64,000 nt of DNA, taken from assembly GCA_944387375.1 (NCBI GenBank), contig CALXEQ010000003.1:69942-133941 (forward strand), given 5' to 3'. Made by a program: the position numbers and the translations under genes. The notes beneath the pieces were generated by a model. It saw nothing but the letters and a program-made list of their open reading frames with translations. It made no database searches and had not been told where the DNA came from. Each line of letters opens with the position of its first letter. Position 1 is the stretch's first letter. Shown here piece after piece: positions 21,355-46,622 of the stretch. The DNA comes from an uncultured Clostridia bacterium. Its GTDB lineage: Bacteria; Bacillota; Clostridia; TANB77; CAG-465.

Positions 21355-24300
21355 CTATTTTGCAACTTCTACATCTAAGTTCATATGTTCTCCATTAATA
21401 TTTGTATCAGTATAGGTATCTCTTTTTCCATTATACTCAATATTTAAAGCTAAAGTTTCTCTTTTTATTTCATCAGCATATTTTTTAACAACTTCTTCTA
21501 ACATATCATTACCTGATACATAAAGATTTATTTTATCTAGTACTTCAAATCCTTTATCTTTTCTCATGTTTTGTACTTTAGATAGTATTTCTCTTAAATA
21601 TCCTTCTTCTTTAAGTTCTGGTGTAATAGTTGTATCTAATACTACACCTACTTCTCCCTCACCTGCAAATGCATATCCTTCTTTACCTTGCATAGTAATT
21701 AACAAATTATTTGAATCTAAAGCTATTTCTGTATCATCTACAAATATTGTTTCTACTTTTCCAGCCTTTACTTTATTTGCTAGATCCATTTGATTCATTT
21801 TAGCAAGCTCTTCTTTTATCTTTGGAATTAATCTTCCATATTCTTTTCCAAGTACTGGTAAATTTGGTTTTATTTCAAAATTTACATACTCAGACATATC
21901 TGCACCTAATACAACTTCTTTTACATTTAATTCATCTTTTACTATATTACCATAATACTCTGGTAAAGTATCTACAGATATTAGCATTTTAGATAAAGGT
22001 TGTCTATTTTTAATATTTTCAGAATTTCTTGCACTTCTTCCAAGTTTTACTATTTTATATGCTAAATCCATCTCTTTTTCAAGTTGTAAATCTATTTCTT
22101 TATCATTTACTTCTGGCCAATAACATAAATGTACACTTTCTGGAGCACTACTATCCAATCCATAAACTAGATTTTGATATATTTCATCTGTAATAAATGG
22201 TACAAATGGTGCTGCAACTTTTATTAGTGCTGTCAAGACTCTATATAAAGTAACATATGCACCTATTTTTTCATCTGTTAAATCTTGAGCCCAAAATCTT
22301 TCTCTATTTCTTCTTACATACCAGTTAGATAACTCATCTGTAAAGTCCTCAATTAAATAACCTGCACCAGTTATATCATATTTTTCTAATTTCTCATCAA
22401 CTGTTTTTACAAGTGTATTTAATTTAGAAATTATCCATCTATCCATAACATTTTCAGATTTAAAATCTTTATACTCTAATGGATTAAAATTATCTATCTG
22501 TGCATATAAAACATAGAATGAATATACATTCCATAAAGTACTTAAAAATCCTCTTTGACTTTCTTGTACGTTTTCAATAGATAATCTTGATGAAATCCAA
22601 GGAGCACTTCCTGTATAAAAATACCATCTTGTAGCATCTGCTCCAACTGTATTTAATAATACTAATGGATCTACACCATTTTTCTTAGATTTAGACATCT
22701 TCTGTCCTTTTCCATCTAAAACATGTCCAAGTACAATACAATTTTCAAAAGGTATTTTATTAAATAAAGCTGTACCTACTGCTGTTAACGTATAAAACCA
22801 TCCTCTTGTTTGATCTATAGCTTCAGAAATAAATTGTGCTGGGAAATTATTTTTAAACATTTCTTGATTTTCAAATGGATAATGCCACTGTGCAAAAGGC
22901 ATTGAGCCAGAATCAAACCAACAATCAATAACTTCTTTTGCTCTTTTCATTTTCTTTCCACATTTTGGACATTTTAAATATACATTATCTATATATGGTT
23001 TATGCAATTCTATATTTTCTGGAACATCTATTCCTTTTTCTTTTAGTTCTGCAATAGAGCCTATACATTCTCTATGTCCACAAGACTCATCTTCACAAGT
23101 CCAAATTGGAAGTGGTGTTCCCCAATATCTGTCCCTTGATATTCCCCAATCAATTACATTTTCTAAGAAATTACCAAATCTACCTTTTTTAATATTTTCA
23201 GGATACCAATTAACTTTATCGTTATTTTCAACTAAGTTATCTCTTAATTTACTCATCGCAACAAACCAACTTTCTTTTGGATAATACAAAAGTGGTGTAT
23301 CACATCTCCAACAATGTGGATATGAGTGAACATGTCTTTCCTTTGCAAACAATTTGTTTTCATCTTCTAACCATTTGCAAATATCTACATCACAATCTCT
23401 TACAAATCTGCCCTTCCAAGGTTTTACATCATCTACAAATTTTCCTTCTTTATCTACTAAATTAACAAAGGCTATTCCATTTTGCTTAGATACTAAACTA
23501 TCATCCTCACCATAAGCCGGAGCAATATGTACTATTCCTGTTCCATCACTAAGTGATACATAATCTCCATGAATTATTACAAAGGCTTTACCATCAACTT
23601 TAGCAAAAGGCATTAATTGCTCATATTCTTTTCCTAAAAGTTCACTTCCTTTATATACATTTAATACTTCATATTCTTTATCTTTTAAAACTATATCAAC
23701 TAAATCTTTTGCAAGTACATATACTTCATATTTATCTTCATCCACTTTTACCTTTACATCACAATAGTCATATGCTTTGTTTACACATAAAGCAAGATTT
23801 GAAGGTAGAGTCCATGGAGTTGTTGTCCATGCAAGTACATATTTATCTTCATTTTTTAATTTAAATTTTGCTATGCAAGTTAAATCTTTTACATCTTTAT
23901 ATCCTTGTGCTACTTCATGAGAAGATAGAGCTGTACCACATCTTGGACAATATGGCATAACTTTATGTCCCTCGTATAGAAGTCCTTTATTCCACATTTC
24001 CTTTAAAGCCCACCAAACAGACTCAATATATTCATTATAATATGTTACATATGGATGCTCCATATCTACCCAGTATCCAACTTTATTTGTCATTTCTTCC
24101 CATTCATGAACATATTTAAATACACTTTCTTTACATTCTTTTACAAATTTTTCTACTCCATATTCTTCTATTTGCTCTTTTCCAGAAATTCCTAACTTTT
24201 TCTCTATTTCAAGTTCAACAGGTAAACCATGTGTATCCCAACCAGCTTTTCTTATTACTTGATACCCTTTCATTACCTTATACCTAGGAATTATATCTTT

Positions 24301-24492
24301 CATAACTCTTGTTATGATATGACCAGCATGTGGCATACCATTTGCTGTTGGAGGCCCATCATAAAAAGTAAAATATCTTTTACCTTTATTCATATCAAAA
24401 TTCTTTTTTATAATATTTTTCTCTTTCCAGACTTCAGCCATTTCATGTTCCATTCCAACAAAACCATTTTTTAGTTCAACTTTTTTATACAT
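21355..24492 (-). CDS. ileS: isoleucine--tRNA ligase IleS
   Basis: HIGH motif [17 protein letters not shown] motif. Length and overall similarity typical of type 2 IleS. Start ATG at 24492 with RBS GAAAGGAG. The track's TTG start at 24516 is rejected. Confidence 0.95.
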
Positions 24493-24750
24493 AAAAACTT
24501 CTCCTTTCTGATACAAGAATAAATAATTATAAAAAAACGCACATACCTGTATATAAGGAATGTACGATTATATCTAAAATATAATATATACAAAATAATA
24601 ACCACCTTAATATACAACATACCATCATATGTGCCCTTTATAACGTAAGGAATACGGCTCAGCTTACTATTAATTCAGCCTGCAACTCAGAGGTGATTTT
24701 CATATAAAACTAATCTAAATGAGCTCACACCATCCTCATCTCGCTTGATA
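24493..24750 (-). promoter_or_regulatory. candidate T-box riboswitch leader of ileS (Ile specifier AUC)
   Basis: A leader of about 250 nt containing a terminator and a partial T-box-like UUAAGGUGGU segment. It has GAAAAUCA (AUC + purine) in a possible specifier loop and AGUAAGCUGAGCC resembling stem I distal elements. Firmicute ileS genes are normally T-box controlled. The ACCGCG part of the T-box consensus was not found. Confidence 0.35.
24531..24566 (-). terminator. intrinsic terminator inside the ileS leader (attenuator)
   Basis: Minus-strand RNA CGUACAU-loop-AUGUGCG (7 bp, one G-U pair) followed by UUUUUUU, about 40 nt upstream of the ileS RBS. Confidence 0.45.
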
Positions 24751-25027
24751 TTTCATTTTATATTACTCTTCCTCGTCATAGTTTTTGTTAATTATTATTT
24801 ATTCTATCTTTTTAACTTCTATCATTATACCATATCCAAACTTTCTTGTAAAGTACTAATTTTAGCATTTGCAATTATTTATGTTTCAATTATATTTTTA
24901 AACAATTTCATAAATATTACGTTTTTATCTTTTTCGACTTTTTTAAACAAAAACTATTGCAAAGTGAAAAATCGTGTGGTATATTATAGTCATCATCTAT
25001 TTTAATACCTTTCATTTTAGATTGGTT

Positions 25028-25077: not shown

Positions 25078-25100
25078 TTACTAGTCAATTTGACTAGTAA
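25078..25100. terminator. bidirectional intrinsic terminator TTACTAGTCA-att-TGACTAGTAA
   Basis: 10-bp perfect inverted repeat flanked by T-runs on both strands. Lies directly after the stop of the 25107-26132 gene. Confidence 0.5.
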
Positions 25101-25106
25101 TTTTTA

Positions 25107-26132
25107 TTATTCTATAATCATATTTGCATTATATTTTACATCTTCATTTAGTCTAGTTGCTGCAGCTTTATTTTCGCCAGGTTTTAATATATCTAATGGT
25201 TTAGTAACCACTTTATATTTCTTTCCATCTTTTTCAAGCTCGAATACACTTATGCTATTTTCTAAAGTTTCTTCTAAATGTCTTAATTCAGTTGTAAAAT
25301 ACATTTCTTCATCTTTTAAAAACATTCCAACTTTTTTAATAATTCTAAACATTTCTGCAATATGTTGTATATCTTCCCCAACAAATACAACTTGTGGCTT
25401 TTCTGCAAAACCAGCATCATTTTTTACAAAATTTTCGTAAAAATCTGAATATAATTGTACTTTCTCTGCAAACATATTTTGCCAATCATCATTTCTTCTT
25501 ACTACTTCAAATACAAAATCTACTTCTTTATTATCTTGTTTTAATGTAACCATTCCACCTGTTGGTTTAAATTTTACATTATATTTTTTTGAATATAGTA
25601 GTATATTAGGATTTGCTCTTACAAATGCTCCTACTTTTTGCATATATGCAATTATTACCTGATTTCCTGCAAGTTTTCTTTTTACAGCAAAAGCAGGCTT
25701 TGTATTTTCTGTAGGTTGCCATGTTGTTGGAATATTTCTTTGCTTTAATATATATGTAGCTATTTTGTCTATGCAATATGCTCTATATGAGCTTTTTCCA
25801 GTTTCACTTTGGAAAAAATATCTTGCAATAACTTTAGACTTTGTTAAATCTTCTAACCATTTTGCTACTTTAGTTTGTCTTTTTTCAACTTCGATATCAT
25901 TTAATTTGCCTCTAAGTTCAAGTACTTGTGTTACTTGTCTTGATGTAACATAACCAAACTCATTGACAACTTCTAGGGCATCAATATGAGATTCATTAAT
26001 ATATCCCATATCCATTTTAAAAACTACTTGATTTATTGATGCAAAGCCCTCTTTACCATCATATACTTTTTTCTCATCTTGCCTTACAGCAAAAGGAGAT
26101 ATAGCAGTTTTTACTTCTTTATCATTTACCAT
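25107..26132 (-). CDS. hypothetical protein (341 aa), last gene of the T4SS-like block. Possibly a replication/relaxation-type mobile-element protein.
   Basis: Strong RBS AAGGAGAGA. Has its own upstream 200-nt intergenic region. No HUH or Walker motifs found. The function call is speculative. Confidence 0.55.
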   Translation of the reverse strand: MVNDKEVKTAISPFAVRQDEKKVYDGKEGFASINQVVFKMDMGYINESHIDALEVVNEFGYVTSRQVTQVLELRGKLNDIEVEKRQTKVAKWLEDLTKSKVIARYFFQSETGKSSYRAYCIDKIATYILKQRNIPTTWQPTENTKPAFAVKRKLAGNQVIIAYMQKVGAFVRANPNILLYSKKYNVKFKPTGGMVTLKQDNKEVDFVFEVVRRNDDWQNMFAEKVQLYSDFYENFVKNDAGFAEKPQVVFVGEDIQHIAEMFRIIKKVGMFLKDEEMYFTTELRHLEETLENSISVFELEKDGKKYKVVTKPLDILKPGENKAAATRLNEDVKYNANMIIE

Positions 26133-27158: not shown

Positions 27159-27313
27159 AGTTTTAGTAAATTATTACCTTTTCCCTCCTATCTTATTTAA
27201 ATAATCATATATCATTATTATATAATATTTACATTTTTTATGCAATATATAATTATAATGTTTAAGAAGGAAAAAATACAAGGTAATAAATTACCTTGTA
27301 TTTTTTACACCAT

Positions 27314-28249
27314 TTACTCCTCTATAATTTTATAAGTATATTCAATTACATTTTTTACATTTACTTGAATTTTTAAGTCACTTTTATCAAAATAAAAAGT
27401 ATATATATTTGTATCTGATTGAGCATCAAAAATACAATTGTCTGAATTTAATAAAAATATCTCATTTTTATTAGATTTTATAAATTCTTTAAAGTCATGT
27501 ATGTTTCTATATTTAGTCATTTTACAATTTAAATCTAATAATTCATATGCTCTCTCTTGATTATAATTAAAATCTTCTTTAATTTGATTTAAAATATCCT
27601 CTAAATAATCTTGAAATCTTGCATTATATGCTCCAAATATGTTATTAACTTGATTTTCTATTTTATCTGGAAATTGTATTTCTACTTTCTCATCCTCTTT
27701 TAATTCAAAAACACTTTTATCATCTATATATTCTGTTGGTAATAAATTAAAAGTTTTATTAATATCATCTTGTTTTACTATCATAGAAAAGTAATTATGC
27801 TCATTAGATTTTAAATTTCTTAGATTTCCTTTTACAAAATATATATACATATTATTATCTTTATTTCTTGCAACTAAAATATTCTCTATATTTAAGTCAA
27901 AATCATCTTTATAAGTCATTAATGGCAAAATATCATTAATAAGTATATTTTTACTTTCTAGATATTCTTTATCAATTAAATTATATACATTTTGTAAATA
28001 ATAATCTTTATCATCTTGTAAAGTACTAGAATTATAACTTGTAATGCTATAATAATACTTTAAAATGCATGATTTTAATATATAGTACTCTTCTATATTA
28101 TTAATCTTTTGCAATGAAATTTTCGTTTCTTCTGTATCAGCATACTCATCAGATTTTACTATATCATCGTTCTTATCAAAAAATGCAACGGTACTTACCA
28201 CAACAATAATTATAATAATTAATATTATAAAAATATAAAATCTCTTCAT
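27314..28249 (-). CDS. membrane-anchored protein, paralog A (T4SS block)
   Basis: N-terminal TM. Shared motifs with the next gene: YFVKGNLRN/YFVKGVIRN, ERAYELLD/DRAYEYLN, EFIKSNKNE/SFIDSNKNN. RBS AAAGGAGGAG. Confidence 0.6.
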   Translation of the reverse strand: MKRFYIFIILIIIIIVVVSTVAFFDKNDDIVKSDEYADTEETKISLQKINNIEEYYILKSCILKYYYSITSYNSSTLQDDKDYYLQNVYNLIDKEYLESKNILINDILPLMTYKDDFDLNIENILVARNKDNNMYIYFVKGNLRNLKSNEHNYFSMIVKQDDINKTFNLLPTEYIDDKSVFELKEDEKVEIQFPDKIENQVNNIFGAYNARFQDYLEDILNQIKEDFNYNQERAYELLDLNCKMTKYRNIHDFKEFIKSNKNEIFLLNSDNCIFDAQSDTNIYTFYFDKSDLKIQVNVKNVIEYTYKIIEE

Positions 28250-28399
28250 ATAATCTCCTCCTTTATTAAAATTTAGATTTATTATATTAATGTATTATAT
28301 ATTTTATCACAAAAAATTTATCTAGTCAATTATGTAAACATCATGCAAATAAAAAATGGAAGAATTTATATTCTTCCATTAATTAAATTTTATTATAAA

Positions 28400-29380
28400 C
28401 TATATTAAAGATATACTATAATTTAGCTCTGAATAATTATTGCAATATAAAGATATACAATATGTATCAGTTTGATCATAGCAATCCAAAATCATAACTC
28501 CATCTTCATATCTTATTTCATATGTTGAAAATAACATAAAGTACATATTATTTTTATTAGAATCTATAAAACTCTTAAACTCATCAATTGTTTTAAATTC
28601 ATTGGATTTTGCTTGTTCATTAAGATATTCATAAGCTCTATCAATATCATAAAGTAATATTGTTTTTACATTATCAAATCTATACTCAGCAATATCTTCA
28701 ATAGTAGTCGAACTAGAACTAAATTTATTATAGTCTCTATTTTCTACAGACTGTGGTATATCAAAATTTATTTCTTCACCTTCTTTTAAACCATTAAAAT
28801 CAACATCAGCTAAATAATCTCCTAAATACACTTCAAAAGAGCTAGTTGTATTATCTAAAGTTAAAATCATATTAAAGTCTATACCATCATATGTCTCTGT
28901 ATTTCTTATAACACCTTTAACAAAATATGCAGTAACTAATCCAAAATCCTCAGGATTTTCTTCATACTTACTCAAAGAATATACTTCATATAATTCAATC
29001 TTGAAATTCTCTATATATTCTATATTAGAAGTAACATTTTCTTGAGTAATTCCAAGCTTATTAATATAATCAGGTGATAATAAATTATATGTGACATCTC
29101 TATAAAAACTGTCTGTACTATTAGGAGAAGATATTCCATTATAATACAAATAAAATTTTTGTACACAGTTTTTTACTAAATTTAAAGTAGCATATCCTTC
29201 TATTTTTTGTAATTTATTGTTTTCAGAATTTATTATCTCAACATCTGCCTCTCTTAATTCAGTATCACTATAACTGTTATCATTTTCATTAATATTACTT
29301 ACAACTTTAAATATAATTATAATAACAATTATAAAAAGCAACAATATTATTCCAAATATAATTTTTTTATTTTTATACAT
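28400..29380 (-). CDS. membrane-anchored protein, paralog B (T4SS block)
   Basis: See paralog A. Start probably ATG at 29380 (MYKNKKIIFG). Confidence 0.55.
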   Translation of the reverse strand: MYKNKKIIFGIILLLFIIVIIIIFKVVSNINENDNSYSDTELREADVEIINSENNKLQKIEGYATLNLVKNCVQKFYLYYNGISSPNSTDSFYRDVTYNLLSPDYINKLGITQENVTSNIEYIENFKIELYEVYSLSKYEENPEDFGLVTAYFVKGVIRNTETYDGIDFNMILTLDNTTSSFEVYLGDYLADVDFNGLKEGEEINFDIPQSVENRDYNKFSSSSTTIEDIAEYRFDNVKTILLYDIDRAYEYLNEQAKSNEFKTIDEFKSFIDSNKNNMYFMLFSTYEIRYEDGVMILDCYDQTDTYCISLYCNNYSELNYSISLI

Positions 29381-29396
29381 AATATTCACCAACTTT

Positions 29397-40384: not shown

Positions 40385-41059
40385 TTAAATAAATGTTTTA
40401 TTAATTGCTGTAGAAATAAATGACAACACATTAAGAGTTGTGAAAATTAAAATAATACCTATTATATACATAGCACTTTTTTCTTTCAGTTTTGCTTTTA
40501 CTTCGGGACCAGAAAAAATATACTTTACTCCCATATAAACTGTAACTATAACTGCAATAAATTTGGCAGCTAATACTATTATACTAAAAACGCTTGCAAA
40601 AGCACTTTCAAGACTAGAGCCATTAAAAATAAATAGTTGTGTATTTCCAGAAACTCCTGAAACAGCTATATTACCTGTGTTTTGATCATAACTAATATTC
40701 CTGATAAGTAAACCTCTTATATTGGACCATCCAAAGAAAAATATACATGCCACCAATAAAGTAACAAGATTTTCTTTAACAGAAACTTTATCAGATACAC
40801 TTCCTAAAACATATTTTATACCCAAAACAACCGTAGCTATAGCAATAGCTCCTGTTCCTATAGTTTCTACAATATTAGCTATTTGACTAATAACACTAGA
40901 ATCAAAATAAATATCAGTACTTCCCTGGGAATACCATTGAGACGCTTCACTCCAAAAGTCATACGTACTATTATTTTGACTATCGCTAGCATATAAATTA
41001 TTTAAAAATATTGTCATCATAAAAATCATTCCTAATAAAATAATATTTTTCTTTTTCAT
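40385..41059 (-). CDS. tandem-duplicated VirB2/TrbC-like pilin protein
   Basis: Signal peptide plus two copies of the pilin module: IAIATVVLGIKYVLGSVSDKVSVKENLVTLLVACIFFFG and IAVIVTVYMGVKYIFSGPEVKAKLKEKSAMYIIGIILIFTTL. Start uncertain: ATG at 41059 or TTG at 41071. Confidence 0.5.
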   Translation of the reverse strand: MKKKNIILLGMIFMMTIFLNNLYASDSQNNSTYDFWSEASQWYSQGSTDIYFDSSVISQIANIVETIGTGAIAIATVVLGIKYVLGSVSDKVSVKENLVTLLVACIFFFGWSNIRGLLIRNISYDQNTGNIAVSGVSGNTQLFIFNGSSLESAFASVFSIIVLAAKFIAVIVTVYMGVKYIFSGPEVKAKLKEKSAMYIIGIILIFTTLNVLSFISTAINKTFI

Positions 41060-41199
41060 ATTAAACCACAACCCTATTTTTTATAAATAGTTACTCCTTT
41101 CTAGTATAAAATCAAATATTAAATATAGTATAACATATATTAAAGCTATATTAGTAAATTATATATATTTTTTTTATTTTTGTAATAATAGTGAAATAT

Positions 41200-41565
41200 T
41201 TATATACTTGTCATAACATTATTTGATATGTTAGTAATAAATCCTATTATTGTTGGAGCCGCAAATACTAAAATAGTTCCTACTATAAGCCATATTAAAG
41301 TTTCTTTTATCTTCGCTTTATCATTTGAAGCAGCATACATATACTTTACTCCTGTAAAAACAACTCCACAAACTGCCGCAACTTGTAGTACTAAAAGAAT
41401 TGTAGAACCTACACGTGACATTACACCATCTAAAGCTGTATTTCCCTCATTAGCAACATTACCATATAAATCTTCATTAAACCCATTTCCTAAAACAGCA
41501 AAAATATAAGTATTACATATACTAAACAATACTAAAGTTATTAAAAGAATCTTTTTAAATTTCAT
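41200..41565 (-). CDS. VirB2/TrbC-like pilin (prepilin with signal peptide)
   Basis: Signal peptide MKFKKILLITLVLFSICNTYIFA, then two hydrophobic helices separated by KYMYAASNDKAKIKETL. RBS AAGAGGTAG. Confidence 0.55.
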   Translation of the reverse strand: MKFKKILLITLVLFSICNTYIFAVLGNGFNEDLYGNVANEGNTALDGVMSRVGSTILLVLQVAAVCGVVFTGVKYMYAASNDKAKIKETLIWLIVGTILVFAAPTIIGFITNISNNVMTSI

Positions 41566-41740
41566 TTTTCTACCTCTTTTCTATATTCTTATTTATATTA
41601 TACTATATATTATTTTTTTAATCAATTAAAATATTAGTAATATTATGAATTTATAAGCAAAAAATGAACCTCTGAAAAATATCAAAGGTTCATTTTTAAT
41701 TAAGTGCACTTAGTATTATTTAACATATTTATAATCTTAA

Positions 41741-42094
41741 TTATTGTATAACACTATTACCAGCATCAATAATAAATTGAACAACTGTACTTGCTGCGAA
41801 TACTAATATGGCACCTACAACAAGACCAATCATACCATTTTTAATTTCTGCTTTACCATCAGCACTAGCAAACATATACTTAACACCAGCAAATACTATA
41901 GCTGCAATTGCACATATTTGAAGAACTGTAAGAACTGTGCTCCATACGCTTGATACAGCAGTATTAACATTTCCAATTCCTTGACCACTACCCATATTTT
42001 GAATTTCCTCAGGAGTTCGTGCTAACACTGGACAAGTAACAATTACTAATGCTACAAGAACGATTGGCATAACTCTTAACATAAATTTTTTCAT
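41741..42094 (-). CDS. VirB2/TrbC-like pilin (prepilin with signal peptide)
   Basis: Paralog of the 41200 gene (VFAGVKYMFASADGKAEIKNGMIGLVVGAILVFAAS). Start ATG at 42094 with RBS AAAGGAGGGTG. Confidence 0.55.
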   Translation of the reverse strand: MKKFMLRVMPIVLVALVIVTCPVLARTPEEIQNMGSGQGIGNVNTAVSSVWSTVLTVLQICAIAAIVFAGVKYMFASADGKAEIKNGMIGLVVGAILVFAASTVVQFIIDAGNSVIQ

Positions 42095-42126
42095 TATAAA
42101 CACCCTCCTTTGTTTACTCTATTATA

Positions 42127-42155
42127 ATTATACCAAATTTTGGATTAATAATCAA
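42127..42155 (-). promoter_or_regulatory. consensus-like sigma-A promoter TTGATT-17-TATAAT driving the T4SS-like operon
   Basis: Minus strand reads TTGATTattaatccaaaatttggTATAAT(TATAAT). The -10 element is duplicated. About 25 nt upstream of the first pilin gene. Confidence 0.5.
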
Positions 42156-42272
42156 TAGTTTTAATATTTTTTGCCTCTTTAAATGCGAATTTTTATAGAG
42201 TTTTGCTATATTTCTACCCAAATTTTTAGTATATTTTTCTTTACTTTTTTTAATTTACATATATACTATGTA

Positions 42273-42788
42273 ATGGTGATTCTTTTGAAAAAATTTTATT
42301 TTATTTATATTATTGTAATTATACTATATTTTTATTCATTTTCAAACAAAAATTCTGAAAAAAATTTACAAAATAATAATGTTTCTTTTATATATCCTAC
42401 CGAATATACTTCTCTTTCTTCTGAATATGGTAATAGATATTTATATGGATATCAAAACTTTCATGACGGAATAGATTTCTTAGCACCTCAAAATAGTTTA
42501 GTATATGCAAGCTGCGATGGATATGTAATATATTCTTCTTTTTTAGAAACCGGTTATGGAAATACTGTTATTATTTCTCATTCAAATAACTTAAGAACTT
42601 TATACTGTCATTTATCTGAAAATTTTATTGTTAAACCTGGTCAATATGTTAAGCAAGGGGAAATAATAGGATATGTTGGACCAAGATTTTTATCAAATGG
42701 AATACAAAATGGAAATACTACTGGTCCTCACCTTCATTTTTCTATATATAAGGATAATTTCAGCATAAATCCATTAAATTTATTATAA
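42273..42788 (+). CDS. M23 (LytM) family metallo-endopeptidase, membrane-anchored
   Basis: HxxxD motif (HDGIDF), GYGNTVIISH, HLHF motif. N-terminal hydrophobic anchor. Start ATG at 42273. Confidence 0.75.
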   Translation: MVILLKKFYFIYIIVIILYFYSFSNKNSEKNLQNNNVSFIYPTEYTSLSSEYGNRYLYGYQNFHDGIDFLAPQNSLVYASCDGYVIYSSFLETGYGNTVIISHSNNLRTLYCHLSENFIVKPGQYVKQGEIIGYVGPRFLSNGIQNGNTTGPHLHFSIYKDNFSINPLNLL

Positions 42789-42823
42789 ATTTAACATTTT
42801 TTTAATAATTTTGTAAAAAAGTA

Positions 42824-42852
42824 TTGACTTTTATTAAATTCAGTATTATAAT
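42824..42852 (+). promoter_or_regulatory. perfect-consensus sigma-A promoter TTGACT-17-TATAAT with no downstream ORF
   Basis: ttgact at 42824-42829, 17-nt spacer, tataat at 42847-42852. Confidence 0.5.
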
Positions 42853-42858
42853 TCAAAT

Positions 42859-43002
42859 CGTGTCAATTTTAGATTAAAAATTGACGTTATCATACATATC
42901 TTAATCATTTATAAATGATTAATTCTTTTTTACTCTGGGAATTTATTCCTGGAGTTTTTTATAAAATAAAAATATCAGGATATTTCTTCCTGATATTTTT
43001 AT
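42859..43002 (+). ncRNA. candidate small RNA (~145 nt) between the M23 peptidase and SSB genes
   Basis: Bounded by the consensus promoter upstream and a hairpin plus T-run terminator (42974-42994). Contains three further inverted repeats (42862-42885, ~42901-42922, ~42945-42960). No RBS-preceded ORF. Confidence 0.3.
42974..42994. terminator. bidirectional intrinsic terminator between the convergent M23/sRNA and SSB genes
   Basis: ATCAGGA-tatttct-TCCTGAT hairpin with T-runs on both strands. The ssb stop is at 42999-43001. Confidence 0.5.
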
Positions 43003-43622
43003 TTTTCTACTTTAGCAAATTTTGATACAGAAACTTCATATGCTACTTTCTTTTCAACTTCCCCATTTTCTAATTTTTTTTCATAAGCTCTTGATTGTAT
43101 TCTACCACTTAATTTTACCAAACTACCTACTTTTAAAGTATCACAAAATTTTGCATTTCTTCCCCATAATATACATGGTATATAATCTGATTTTTTATAC
43201 GTTCTATTAACTGCTATTAAAACATCTGCTATTTCTCTTCCTAAAGGAGTTTTTCTATATACAGGTTCTTTACAAATATATCCTATCAAATTTGCATTAT
43301 TTAATGTAACTATTGTATTGTCCTCTAAAAATTCTATTTCTTTTACAAAAACAGATAACACAAGTTTATTTTTCTTTTCTCCTTGCATATTGTATGATCT
43401 AAATTGACCATTAATCTTTACTATTTTATCTACCTGAATTTTATTTATATCAACTAATCTTTCTGATATTATAACAGGTAATATATCCTCATAATTACTT
43501 AGTCTTTTACTTTTTATTGAAAACTTATAAAATTTTTCTTCGAATATTTCATGACTAAATTCAGGTTCACTAATAATTACCCCACCTATAGCTACATTGT
43601 TATTTTCCATATAATTTTCCAC
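42999..43622 (-). CDS. single-stranded DNA-binding protein with two tandem OB folds and no acidic C-terminal tail
   Basis: Domain 2 matches SSB (LIAVNRTY, ILWGRNAKF, GSLVKLSGRIQSRAYE). Domain 1 is a degenerate copy. It ends ...KFAKVEK without the D-D-D-I-P-F type tail. Confidence 0.7.
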   Translation of the reverse strand: MENYMENNNVAIGGVIISEPEFSHEIFEEKFYKFSIKSKRLSNYEDILPVIISERLVDINKIQVDKIVKINGQFRSYNMQGEKKNKLVLSVFVKEIEFLEDNTIVTLNNANLIGYICKEPVYRKTPLGREIADVLIAVNRTYKKSDYIPCILWGRNAKFCDTLKVGSLVKLSGRIQSRAYEKKLENGEVEKKVAYEVSVSKFAKVEK

Positions 43623-43682
43623 TTTTTATCCTCCTTATGTTTATTTATATATTTAATCTTATGTTTTAATAGCAAAAAAAAT

Positions 43683-43715
43683 TACTGTGATATACGCATT
43701 ATATCACAATAATTT
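43683..43715 (-). terminator. intrinsic terminator after the TraX-like gene
   Basis: Inverted repeat attactgtgatata/tatatcacaataat (one mismatch) with a T-run on the minus strand. Confidence 0.4.
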
Positions 43716-43756
43716 TTATTTGTAAATATGTTATGTAAATTATGTTTGCTATACAT

Positions 43757-44482
43757 TTAGATTTTATAGAACATAAAACCTATAATCATAAATAAAATAT
43801 ACTGTACAGGATAAAAATAATAAAATAACTTTTTATTTGAAAATCCTTTTTTACCATTATATAAATATATAGGTATAATTGCAAATAAACTATACTTCAT
43901 TATACTTTCTCCAAACAATATTAAAAATAATACACAACTACTAAATACCAATGCTTTCTTATATTTAATTTTATCATATAAAAACAAAATAGTTATAAAG
44001 AATGGAATTATAAATCCATATTCTATATCTAAAATTATATATAAAGAAAACAAAATTAAAATTAGCAATATATTTATAAATATCTTTTTCACATTATTAG
44101 TTTTTATTATATTATCTAATATAACTAAATAAAGTAAAGAAATTGAAAAAGAAAATAATATATTAGGCTCTCTATAAAAGTTTATACCATAGGTATTATC
44201 TATTAAATTAATTATTGTACCTACAATTATTACTAAAACTTGAGTGATAATTGCAAATTTTAATACTCTAATGATATATTGCTTTAAATCTTTTGTATGT
44301 TTATACCCCTGATAAATTAAAAATGCAAATAAAGGCATCGATATTCTTCCTATACTTCTTAATATATCATATTCATTATTTTCCAAAGCATAGTAGAAAA
44401 AATATCCAATATGATCAATTATCATAGTTATTATAGCTATTATTCTTATATCAAAGGACGAAAAAATTTTTAACGATTTCAT
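43757..44482 (-). CDS. TraX family polytopic membrane protein (putative acyl/acetyltransferase)
   Basis: N-terminal IIAIITMIIDHIGYFFY, the DHIG motif typical of TraX-family proteins. About 8 TM helices. Start codon lies 3 nt after the pgi stop. Confidence 0.6.
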   Translation of the reverse strand: MKSLKIFSSFDIRIIAIITMIIDHIGYFFYYALENNEYDILRSIGRISMPLFAFLIYQGYKHTKDLKQYIIRVLKFAIITQVLVIIVGTIINLIDNTYGINFYREPNILFSFSISLLYLVILDNIIKTNNVKKIFINILLILILFSLYIILDIEYGFIIPFFITILFLYDKIKYKKALVFSSCVLFLILFGESIMKYSLFAIIPIYLYNGKKGFSNKKLFYYFYPVQYILFMIIGFMFYKI

Positions 44483-46546: not shown

Positions 46547-46622
46547 GTACCTTTAGCTCAGTCGGTAGAGCAGCTGCCTCTTAAGCAGTTTGTCCGGGGT
46601 TCGAGCCCCCGAAGGTGCACCA
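46547..46622 (+). tRNA. tRNA-Lys (anticodon CUU)
   Basis: Cloverleaf folded by hand. Acceptor GTACCTT/AAGGTGC, D-arm GCTC/GAGC, anticodon stem GCTGC/GCAGT with loop CUCUUAA, T-arm CGGGG-TTCGAGC-CCCCG. Discriminator A, encoded CCA. Confidence 0.85.

Follow-up and report, generated by a model that had tools for sequence, protein, structure and literature searches.

Between a gene for an M23 peptidase and the convergent gene ssb, which encodes a two-OB-fold single-stranded DNA-binding protein (SSB), the window (the whole stretch of 64,000 nucleotides that was analysed, referred to as 64 kb) contains an intergenic element with a promoter motif, hairpins separated by an unpaired linker, and two terminators, the coordinates of which are collected in Table 1. 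The longest open reading frame of the peptidase begins at 42183, with 42273 as the likely start codon, and the stop codon of ssb occupies positions 42999–43001. The local DNA has a composition of 23–27% GC.

Table 1. Features of the M23/SSB intergenic region and the flanking genes (window coordinates)
Feature	Position	Strand	Details
M23 peptidase gene	42273–42788	+	Pfam PF01551, E = 2e-28; 171-aa gene calls in strain contigs
A-tract, UP-element-like	42815–42820	+	just 5' of the -35; found in all five types (alignments)
Sigma-70-type promoter TTGACT-17-TATAAT	42824–42852	+	-35 TTGACT 42824–42829; 17-nt spacer; -10 TATAAT 42847–42852
Predicted primary transcript, ~103 nt	42858–42961	+	placed from promoter and terminator geometry
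5' hairpin HP1	42860–42887	+	core GTCAATTTT 42862–42870 pairs with AAAATTGAC 42877–42885
Single-stranded linker CAUACAUAUC (DNA decamer CATACATATC)	42891–42900	+	invariant in five of five types
Hairpin HP2, perfect 22-nt palindrome TTAATCATTTATAAATGATTAA	42901–42922	+	core AAUCAUU-N4-AAUGAUU invariant
U-rich single-stranded spacer before terminator	42923–42931	+	in all types, length variable
Intrinsic terminator T1	42932–42961	+	10-bp stem ACTCTGGGAAT/ATTCCTGGAGT 42932–42955, then TTTTTT
Bidirectional terminator T2	42963–43005	.	core ATATCAGGA 42972–42980 / TCCTGATAT 42988–42996, then T-run
SSB gene (ssb), PRK05813 family	42999–43622	-	294 bits against a cutoff of 171; convergent with the element

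To the left of the peptidase gene, on the minus strand, lies a T4SS-like block of the Gram-positive type that encodes TrbC/VirB2-like pilins, PrgI, a VirB4-like ATPase and a CHAP/lysozyme protein; a 478-aa open reading frame adjoining the ATPase gene is possibly the N-terminal part of that ATPase. Counted together with M23, this block (~27300–42788, with three to four VirB2-like pilins) adjoins pgi-(TraX)-SSB in more than 40 species-level Clostridia MAGs, and searches with Pfam and NCBIfam detected neither a relaxase nor a coupling protein (T4CP) in it, several of its open reading frames having no match of any kind. On these two grounds, the block resembles a chromosomal system of long residence more than a typical ICE. 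A literature search combining TANB77 with type IV secretion returned nothing relevant. Elsewhere in the window, a tRNA gene at 46547–46619 (plus strand) is the only Rfam match at gathering level, and a T-box leader at 24627–24788 (minus strand) precedes the isoleucyl-tRNA synthetase gene (21355–24516); with a score of 80 bits (E = 1e-17) against a gathering score of 93, this leader is missed by a default scan.

Occurrence and variation of the element

A scan with the SSB protein, limited to one genome per species, yielded 80 loci, all of them from gut Clostridia MAGs, and further contigs obtained through SSB homologs and a pattern scan of metagenomes brought the number of element-bearing contigs to about 25, which fall into five sequence types: type A (the window, L100 and L156–L165), type B (L001, L002, L138, L141, L149–L152 and L154), type C (L003 and L148), type D (L142) and type E (L143 and L144). 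More than 40 of the 80 loci, with SSB identities down to 57%, share the gene order pgi-(TraX)-SSB-M23-pilins-PrgI-VirB4. The three closest relatives have, like the window, an M23/SSB gap of ~200–220 nt, compared with 12–66 nt, typically with one hairpin, in nearly all other relatives. Where the SSB is at least ~83% identical, forming a single clade, the element is present, and it is absent from the syntenic spot in all sampled contigs with an SSB at most 80% identical; this boundary indicates that the element is a clade-specific addition of ~170 nt to an ancestral terminator-only gap. Six loci (L010, L014, L017, L036, L046 and L053) carry 0.8–1.9 kb of extra DNA in the same gap, which in L036 includes a second, diverged SSB-like copy, and the gap is thus a recurrent insertion site.

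The phyletic distribution bears directly on one of the functions proposed in the initial annotation, an oriT-like structured site. An oriT or another DNA-processing site of the neighbouring T4SS block would suit the position of the element at the edge of a block of strain-variable presence as well as its AT-rich inverted repeats, and types D and E contain TATCCTG in T2, a motif that resembles the nick-region cores of the MOBP group. However, types A, B and C lack ATCCTG, which where present is simply part of the ssb terminator, the block has no relaxase or coupling protein detectable with the models named above, and the element is missing from more than 40 relatives in which the T4SS genes and their synteny are preserved. 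The proposal appears largely refuted by this distribution, and we consider such a site very improbable. The element with its palindromes, for which conservation next to T4SS blocks had been suggested as a check, is present in the five types of one clade and missing from these relatives.

The element is a single-copy feature of its locus. When the window and 96 loci (723 kb in all) were searched with a covariance model, the syntenic copy was the only match and no paralog appeared. A metagenome scan with the 20-nt palindrome gave 60 matches, among which the only true homologs, L100 and L138, both lie between M23 and ssb; the other 58 share the palindrome alone and come from unrelated contigs without M23 and ssb as neighbours. 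No phage, plasmid or viral copy was found by plasmid BLAST, in a phage collection or in a pattern scan of IMG/VR. The only similarity that BLAST returned, to Bacillus mycoides plasmids, was set aside: it is a 100-nt AT-rich likeness to a promoter-like intergenic stretch, and its alignment stops short of the element. A repeated or mobile small element of the MITE or REP-like kind was rejected as well, only the syntenic copy being found in the window and the 96 loci and all true metagenome homologs lying between M23 and ssb.

Several contigs are mosaics around the locus. Metagenome contig L100 is 98–100% identical to the window over ~42123–43722 (M23, element and SSB) and 59–82% identical to the left of ~42120 (36723–42120), with the pilins lowest at 59–68%; the sharp recombination breakpoint lies in the divergent promoter region of the pilin and M23 genes, and this mosaic suggests allelic replacement or diversifying exchange of T4SS genes between strains. 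Contig L141 matches the window at ~100% identity along the 5' two-thirds of ssb and at ~80% through the 3' end of ssb, the element and M23, the drop marking a mosaic recombination breakpoint inside ssb at window position ~43150. L145 on the one hand and L146 and L147 on the other, which encode the same SSB protein (P0013), are 98.7% identical until just past the SSB terminator hairpin, beyond which one side continues with a spermine synthase gene and the other with M23 and pilins; the presence of the T4SS block thus varies within the species, with the M23/SSB gap as the junction. The TraX-family gene between pgi and SSB (43757–44482) is cleanly absent from nine of ten strain contigs (L156–L159 and L161–L165) that are otherwise 97–99% identical, is present in L160 and is patchy across species. 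The element itself was also considered as a recombination junction and rejected, the strain breakpoints at ~43150 (inside ssb) and ~42120 (in the pilin/M23 promoter region) both being outside it.

Within type A, ten further strain contigs show no difference in 42711–43057, compared with 11–40 differences in M23 and ~9 in ssb; because recombination around the locus is frequent, this zone without SNPs may partly reflect recombination block structure rather than selection. Within type B, the roughly ten mutational events among nine contigs are confined to the 3' end of M23, the DNA 5' of the -35, the promoter spacer, the A-run separating the terminators and the loop of T2, and they leave the hexamers, the ~115-nt transcript body and the stems untouched. 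Between types, the unit has a mean identity of ~75%, only slightly above the third-codon-position identity of the flanking genes (0.62–0.78), which we take to mean that constraint acts in patches and not over the whole unit; sequence and length both vary in the loops, the U-rich spacer and the stretch between the terminators.

This modest excess over synonymous sites would also suit a non-functional relic, in which the promoter, leader and terminator would be what remained here after the common ancestor of the clade had lost a gene or a small mobile insertion. Such an origin would agree with the abrupt appearance of the element in one clade at a recombination-prone junction, where other relatives have 0.8–1.9-kb insertions. 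We nevertheless regard it as quite improbable, since variation is non-random at every level sampled (between types, within type B and within type A), the stem of T1 has undergone compensatory changes, neither the longer insertions of relatives nor any other part of the window and the 96 loci contains a further copy recognized by the covariance model, and the phage, plasmid and viral searches found none.

Promoter, fold and predicted transcript

The TTGACT-17-TATAAT promoter and all four inverted repeats described in the initial annotation are present on the plus strand where it had placed them. None of the five types departs from TTGAC, from TATAAT or from a spacer length of exactly 17 nt, although the spacer sequence itself drifts, and the persistence of hexamers and spacing across types so diverged argues that the promoter is real, as the annotation had supposed. 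The possibility raised with it, that the hexamers are chance matches in AT-rich DNA, describes loose matches well, of which there are 35 against 29 expected, and does not describe the strict form: with six occurrences in 64 kb where shuffled sequences predict 0.23, TTGAC-N18-TATAAT is enriched 26-fold. Four of the five other strict copies are directly upstream of genes in the correct orientation, and this siting, together with the enrichment, indicates that the strict motif is a good marker of real promoters in this genome. A second exact but orphan copy lies at 25090–25118 (plus strand), antisense to the 3' end of the open reading frame 25107–26132 (minus strand); no plus-strand gene is apparent there, and an antisense or small RNA might be its product.

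Transcription would start 6–8 nt past the -10, at ~42858, and would end in the U-tract of T1, and the match of the covariance model (87.8 bits) spans 42854–42963. The repeat read at first as a GGAAT/ATTCC element is indeed present but belongs to T1, a full intrinsic terminator that had been overlooked. The main product is therefore probably ~103 nt long rather than the ~145 nt originally proposed, a length that would still be reached by read-through to T2.

For the 148-nt plus strand of 42858–43005, the predicted fold comprises four hairpins and has a free energy of -44.7 kcal/mol, compared with -18.8 +/- 3.1 kcal/mol for dinucleotide shuffles (z = -8.3). Folded alone, each type gives the same succession of hairpin, linker, hairpin, U-rich stretch and terminator, with z scores from -4.0 to -7.4. 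RNAalifold predicts 28 pairs, and with the model-guided alignment 93.5% of the cells are paired, against 34–44% when the partners are slid. Double changes occur at four pairs and the covariation score is matched by one in 500 shuffles; most pairs outside T1 never vary among the five independent sequence types, and with five sequences this covariation is supportive, not conclusive, for a conserved RNA fold. HP1 forms in all types, usually with one internal mismatch; its 5' arm GUGYSAAUUUU is conserved, 95.9% of the cells of this helix are paired and one pair is compensatory. The stem of T1 is kept through compensatory changes, its apical pair being A-U, C-G or U-A and one G-C becoming A-U, and the window has G-C in place of A-U and two G.U pairs; a U-tract follows in every type. 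The structured non-coding transcript proposed at the outset is thus supported as a prediction by the conserved fold, by the compensatory changes in the terminator stem and by strain polymorphism that avoids the unit.

T2 is common to the element and the convergent ssb and lies 2 nt from the ssb stop codon; in type C, a G-C pair of T2 has become A-U through a compensatory change. Terminator-like sites number two in 3 kb, against 0.3 expected. The view of the transcript as a convergent partner to the 3' end of ssb is not needed, two terminators separating the element from that gene. The terminator scan found no site in 42789–42823, between the stop codon of M23 and the promoter, so that the M23 mRNA should run into the element and end at T1 or T2; the sequence of the element would then double as the M23 3'UTR.

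This last point raises the question of whether the element is a cis-acting 3' end module only, in which the hairpins stabilize the 3'UTR, the double terminators insulate the converging M23 and ssb genes, and the promoter hexamers are fortuitous or irrelevant. The M23 mRNA has to end at T1 or T2, T2 is clearly the terminator of ssb, and loose promoter-like matches do occur at chance frequency in such AT-rich DNA, all of which fits. Against this, exact TTGAC and TATAAT at the fixed 17-nt spacing survive in five types in which spacer and flanks have diverged, the mutations of type B strike the spacer and the upstream DNA and never the hexamers, and the strict motif is rare (six per 64 kb) and otherwise found at real gene starts. 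Moreover, both genes end at a single hairpin in the 12–66-nt gaps of relatives, so that the extra 170 nt are not needed for termination. We therefore hold a purely cis-acting role to be unlikely.

HP2 requires separate consideration. Seven of the eight pairs in this helix never vary, and the invariance of its core carries no information on whether it functions as RNA or as DNA. The 22-bp palindrome, perhaps together with the HP1 repeat at +3 to +28, might therefore represent operators for a dimeric DNA-binding protein, the RNA being a by-product or itself a regulated sRNA. A perfect DNA palindrome with an invariant core and no covariation fits a protein-binding site equally well. A T.T mismatch occupies the centre in types B, C and E, and types A and D are perfectly symmetric through different single T to A substitutions, in opposite arms and at RNA-loop positions; these gains hint weakly at selection for dyad symmetry. 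Nevertheless, we rate an operator as distinctly unlikely. The palindrome is unique in the 64-kb window, its only near match having three mismatches, lying inside a gene and remaining within chance expectation; the 58 other metagenome contigs with the 20-mer share nothing but the palindrome; no regulator gene was gained together with the element; and operators would leave the conserved T1 and the invariant unpaired linker unexplained. We know of no operator consensus that matches the palindrome, and among the boxes compared (Fur/Zur/PerR, CodY, CtsR, Spo0A and the cop box) none is known to fit. A dif site was rejected because there is no GC-skew switch, and the element bears no known resemblance to the dif consensus.

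The region shows no coding potential. The initial annotation had found no open reading frame preceded by a ribosome-binding site, and this is borne out, the only frames of at least 20 aa being unconserved. They deserve mention because an RNA antitoxin of a type I toxin–antitoxin pair, also among the functions first proposed, or a small-protein gene would require one of them: a hydrophobic 36-aa frame on the plus strand (42915–43025) and a 20-aa frame on the minus strand (42846–42908). Type B reduces the former to 14 aa, its frame being broken by indels, and the latter to 8 aa, with 3 aa left in type C; neither has a ribosome-binding site, and the plus-strand frame runs through two terminators into ssb. 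The accompanying likeness to the Rfam families ohsC and RalA is sub-threshold, at 13–22 bits against gathering scores of 50–170. With no toxin frame conserved across the types, the antitoxin proposal was rejected, and either form of it seems barely conceivable.

The search of Rfam that had been recommended for the region, made with release 15, assigned no family to the element at the gathering threshold or at permissive thresholds, the best local match in a 401-nt search being RF02846 (Ref84) with 25 bits against a gathering score of 52 (E = 0.46). No convincing target rises above background in the 64-kb window or the loci. The complement of the linker occurs at 14 sites against eight expected in the target scan, none of them at a gene start, and recurrent near-matches inside codons of the pilins (KYMYA) and of M23 (GYVG) are best accounted for by coding constraint. 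Against 57 start regions, the best RNAduplex energy was -28.6 (mean -17.4, sd 4.2), with implausibly long AU duplexes.

Interpretation as a probable small RNA gene

Taken together, these observations make it somewhat more probable than not that the element is a real, expressed, single-copy sRNA gene of a narrow low-GC gut Clostridia clade; of the three functions put forward in the initial annotation, an sRNA is the only one that still appears tenable. On the best reading, the gene would be young, of recent origin. Weighing against this interpretation are the thin covariation, the patchy constraint, the equal suitability of HP2 as a DNA site, the lack of a convincing target in the window and the loci, and the evident ability of the neighbouring genes to do without the element, syntenic relatives having gaps of only 12–66 nt. 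The sequence has the generic attributes of an sRNA gene: a promoter of its own, a Rho-independent terminator, no coding potential and a conserved secondary structure. A position between convergent genes combined with an own promoter and an own terminator is the classic layout of bacterial sRNA genes.

As an sRNA gene, the element would work as follows. The strong sigma-70-type promoter would direct transcription from ~42858, and the RNA would fold into a protective 5' hairpin, a linker of 13–15 nt containing the invariant CAUACAUAUC, a second AU-rich hairpin, a U-rich stretch and the Rho-independent terminator. Most transcripts would end at ~42961 in T1 (~103 nt), and a minority would read through to the bidirectional ssb terminator T2 (~145 nt). 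The 5' hairpin is predicted to start within a few nucleotides of the transcript start, a layout that in Firmicutes typically protects RNA from 5' exonuclease attack. The RNA may then pair with other RNAs in trans via the invariant unpaired linker, a candidate seed region, and possibly via its hairpin loops. Transcription, the exact ends and the action in trans are the steps that we infer here.

A more specific form of the sRNA interpretation can be drawn, although we give it a low probability: a newborn regulatory RNA at the edge of a relaxase-less, strain-swappable T4SS/M23 block that tunes the block (the pilins or the M23 hydrolase) or ssb, with the palindromic second hairpin serving RNA–RNA dimerization or as a dual DNA/RNA site for protein binding. 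If this were true, the element would be a rare datable example of the de novo birth of an sRNA gene by expansion of an intergenic terminator. The clean phyletic boundary dates the origin of the element and would make it a tidy case for sRNA gene birth next to terminators. If expressed, it would represent an unannotated sRNA family without an Rfam match in an uncultured, reduced-genome lineage of gut Clostridia, for which we know of essentially no RNA biology. In other respects it would be an ordinary object of a familiar kind, a promoter-plus-terminator sRNA gene between convergent genes, and it opens no long-standing question.

Comparison with known systems

The closest parallels in layout are DapZ and MicL of enterobacteria, trans-acting sRNA genes that overlap an mRNA 3'UTR and have their own promoter. 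Like these, the element directly follows a stop codon without a terminator in between, has its own sigma-70 promoter and shares a terminator with the upstream mRNA, and it likewise has a conserved unpaired stretch between hairpins and a U-rich tract before the terminator. There is, however, no sequence relationship, the host of the element is a low-GC member of the Clostridia, and its promoter lies after the coding sequence and not inside it. The Rfam family closest in score, Ref84 (Enterococcus sRNA 84), also combines two hairpins, the second a terminator with a U-tail, in AT-rich Firmicute DNA, but the score of 25 bits against 52 reflects a generic hairpin-plus-terminator shape, and the element is not a member of this family.

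Small RNAs of the Anti-Q and Qa type regulate conjugation operons of Gram-positive bacteria (pCF10), Anti-Q being antisense to the leader of the transfer operon. The element resembles Anti-Q in that a structured RNA of ~100 nt, predicted in our case, is encoded next to a T4SS gene set of the PrgI type; it differs in being located past M23 at the distal end of the block, in having no overlap with any T4SS transcript and in its absence from most relatives that carry this T4SS. Finally, T2 corresponds to the bidirectional intrinsic terminators found between convergent genes, being a symmetric hairpin between an A-run and a T-run at 2 nt from the ssb stop codon, whereas the clade of the window departs from such terminators by the addition of ~170 nt upstream, which comprise a conserved promoter, two hairpins and another terminator.
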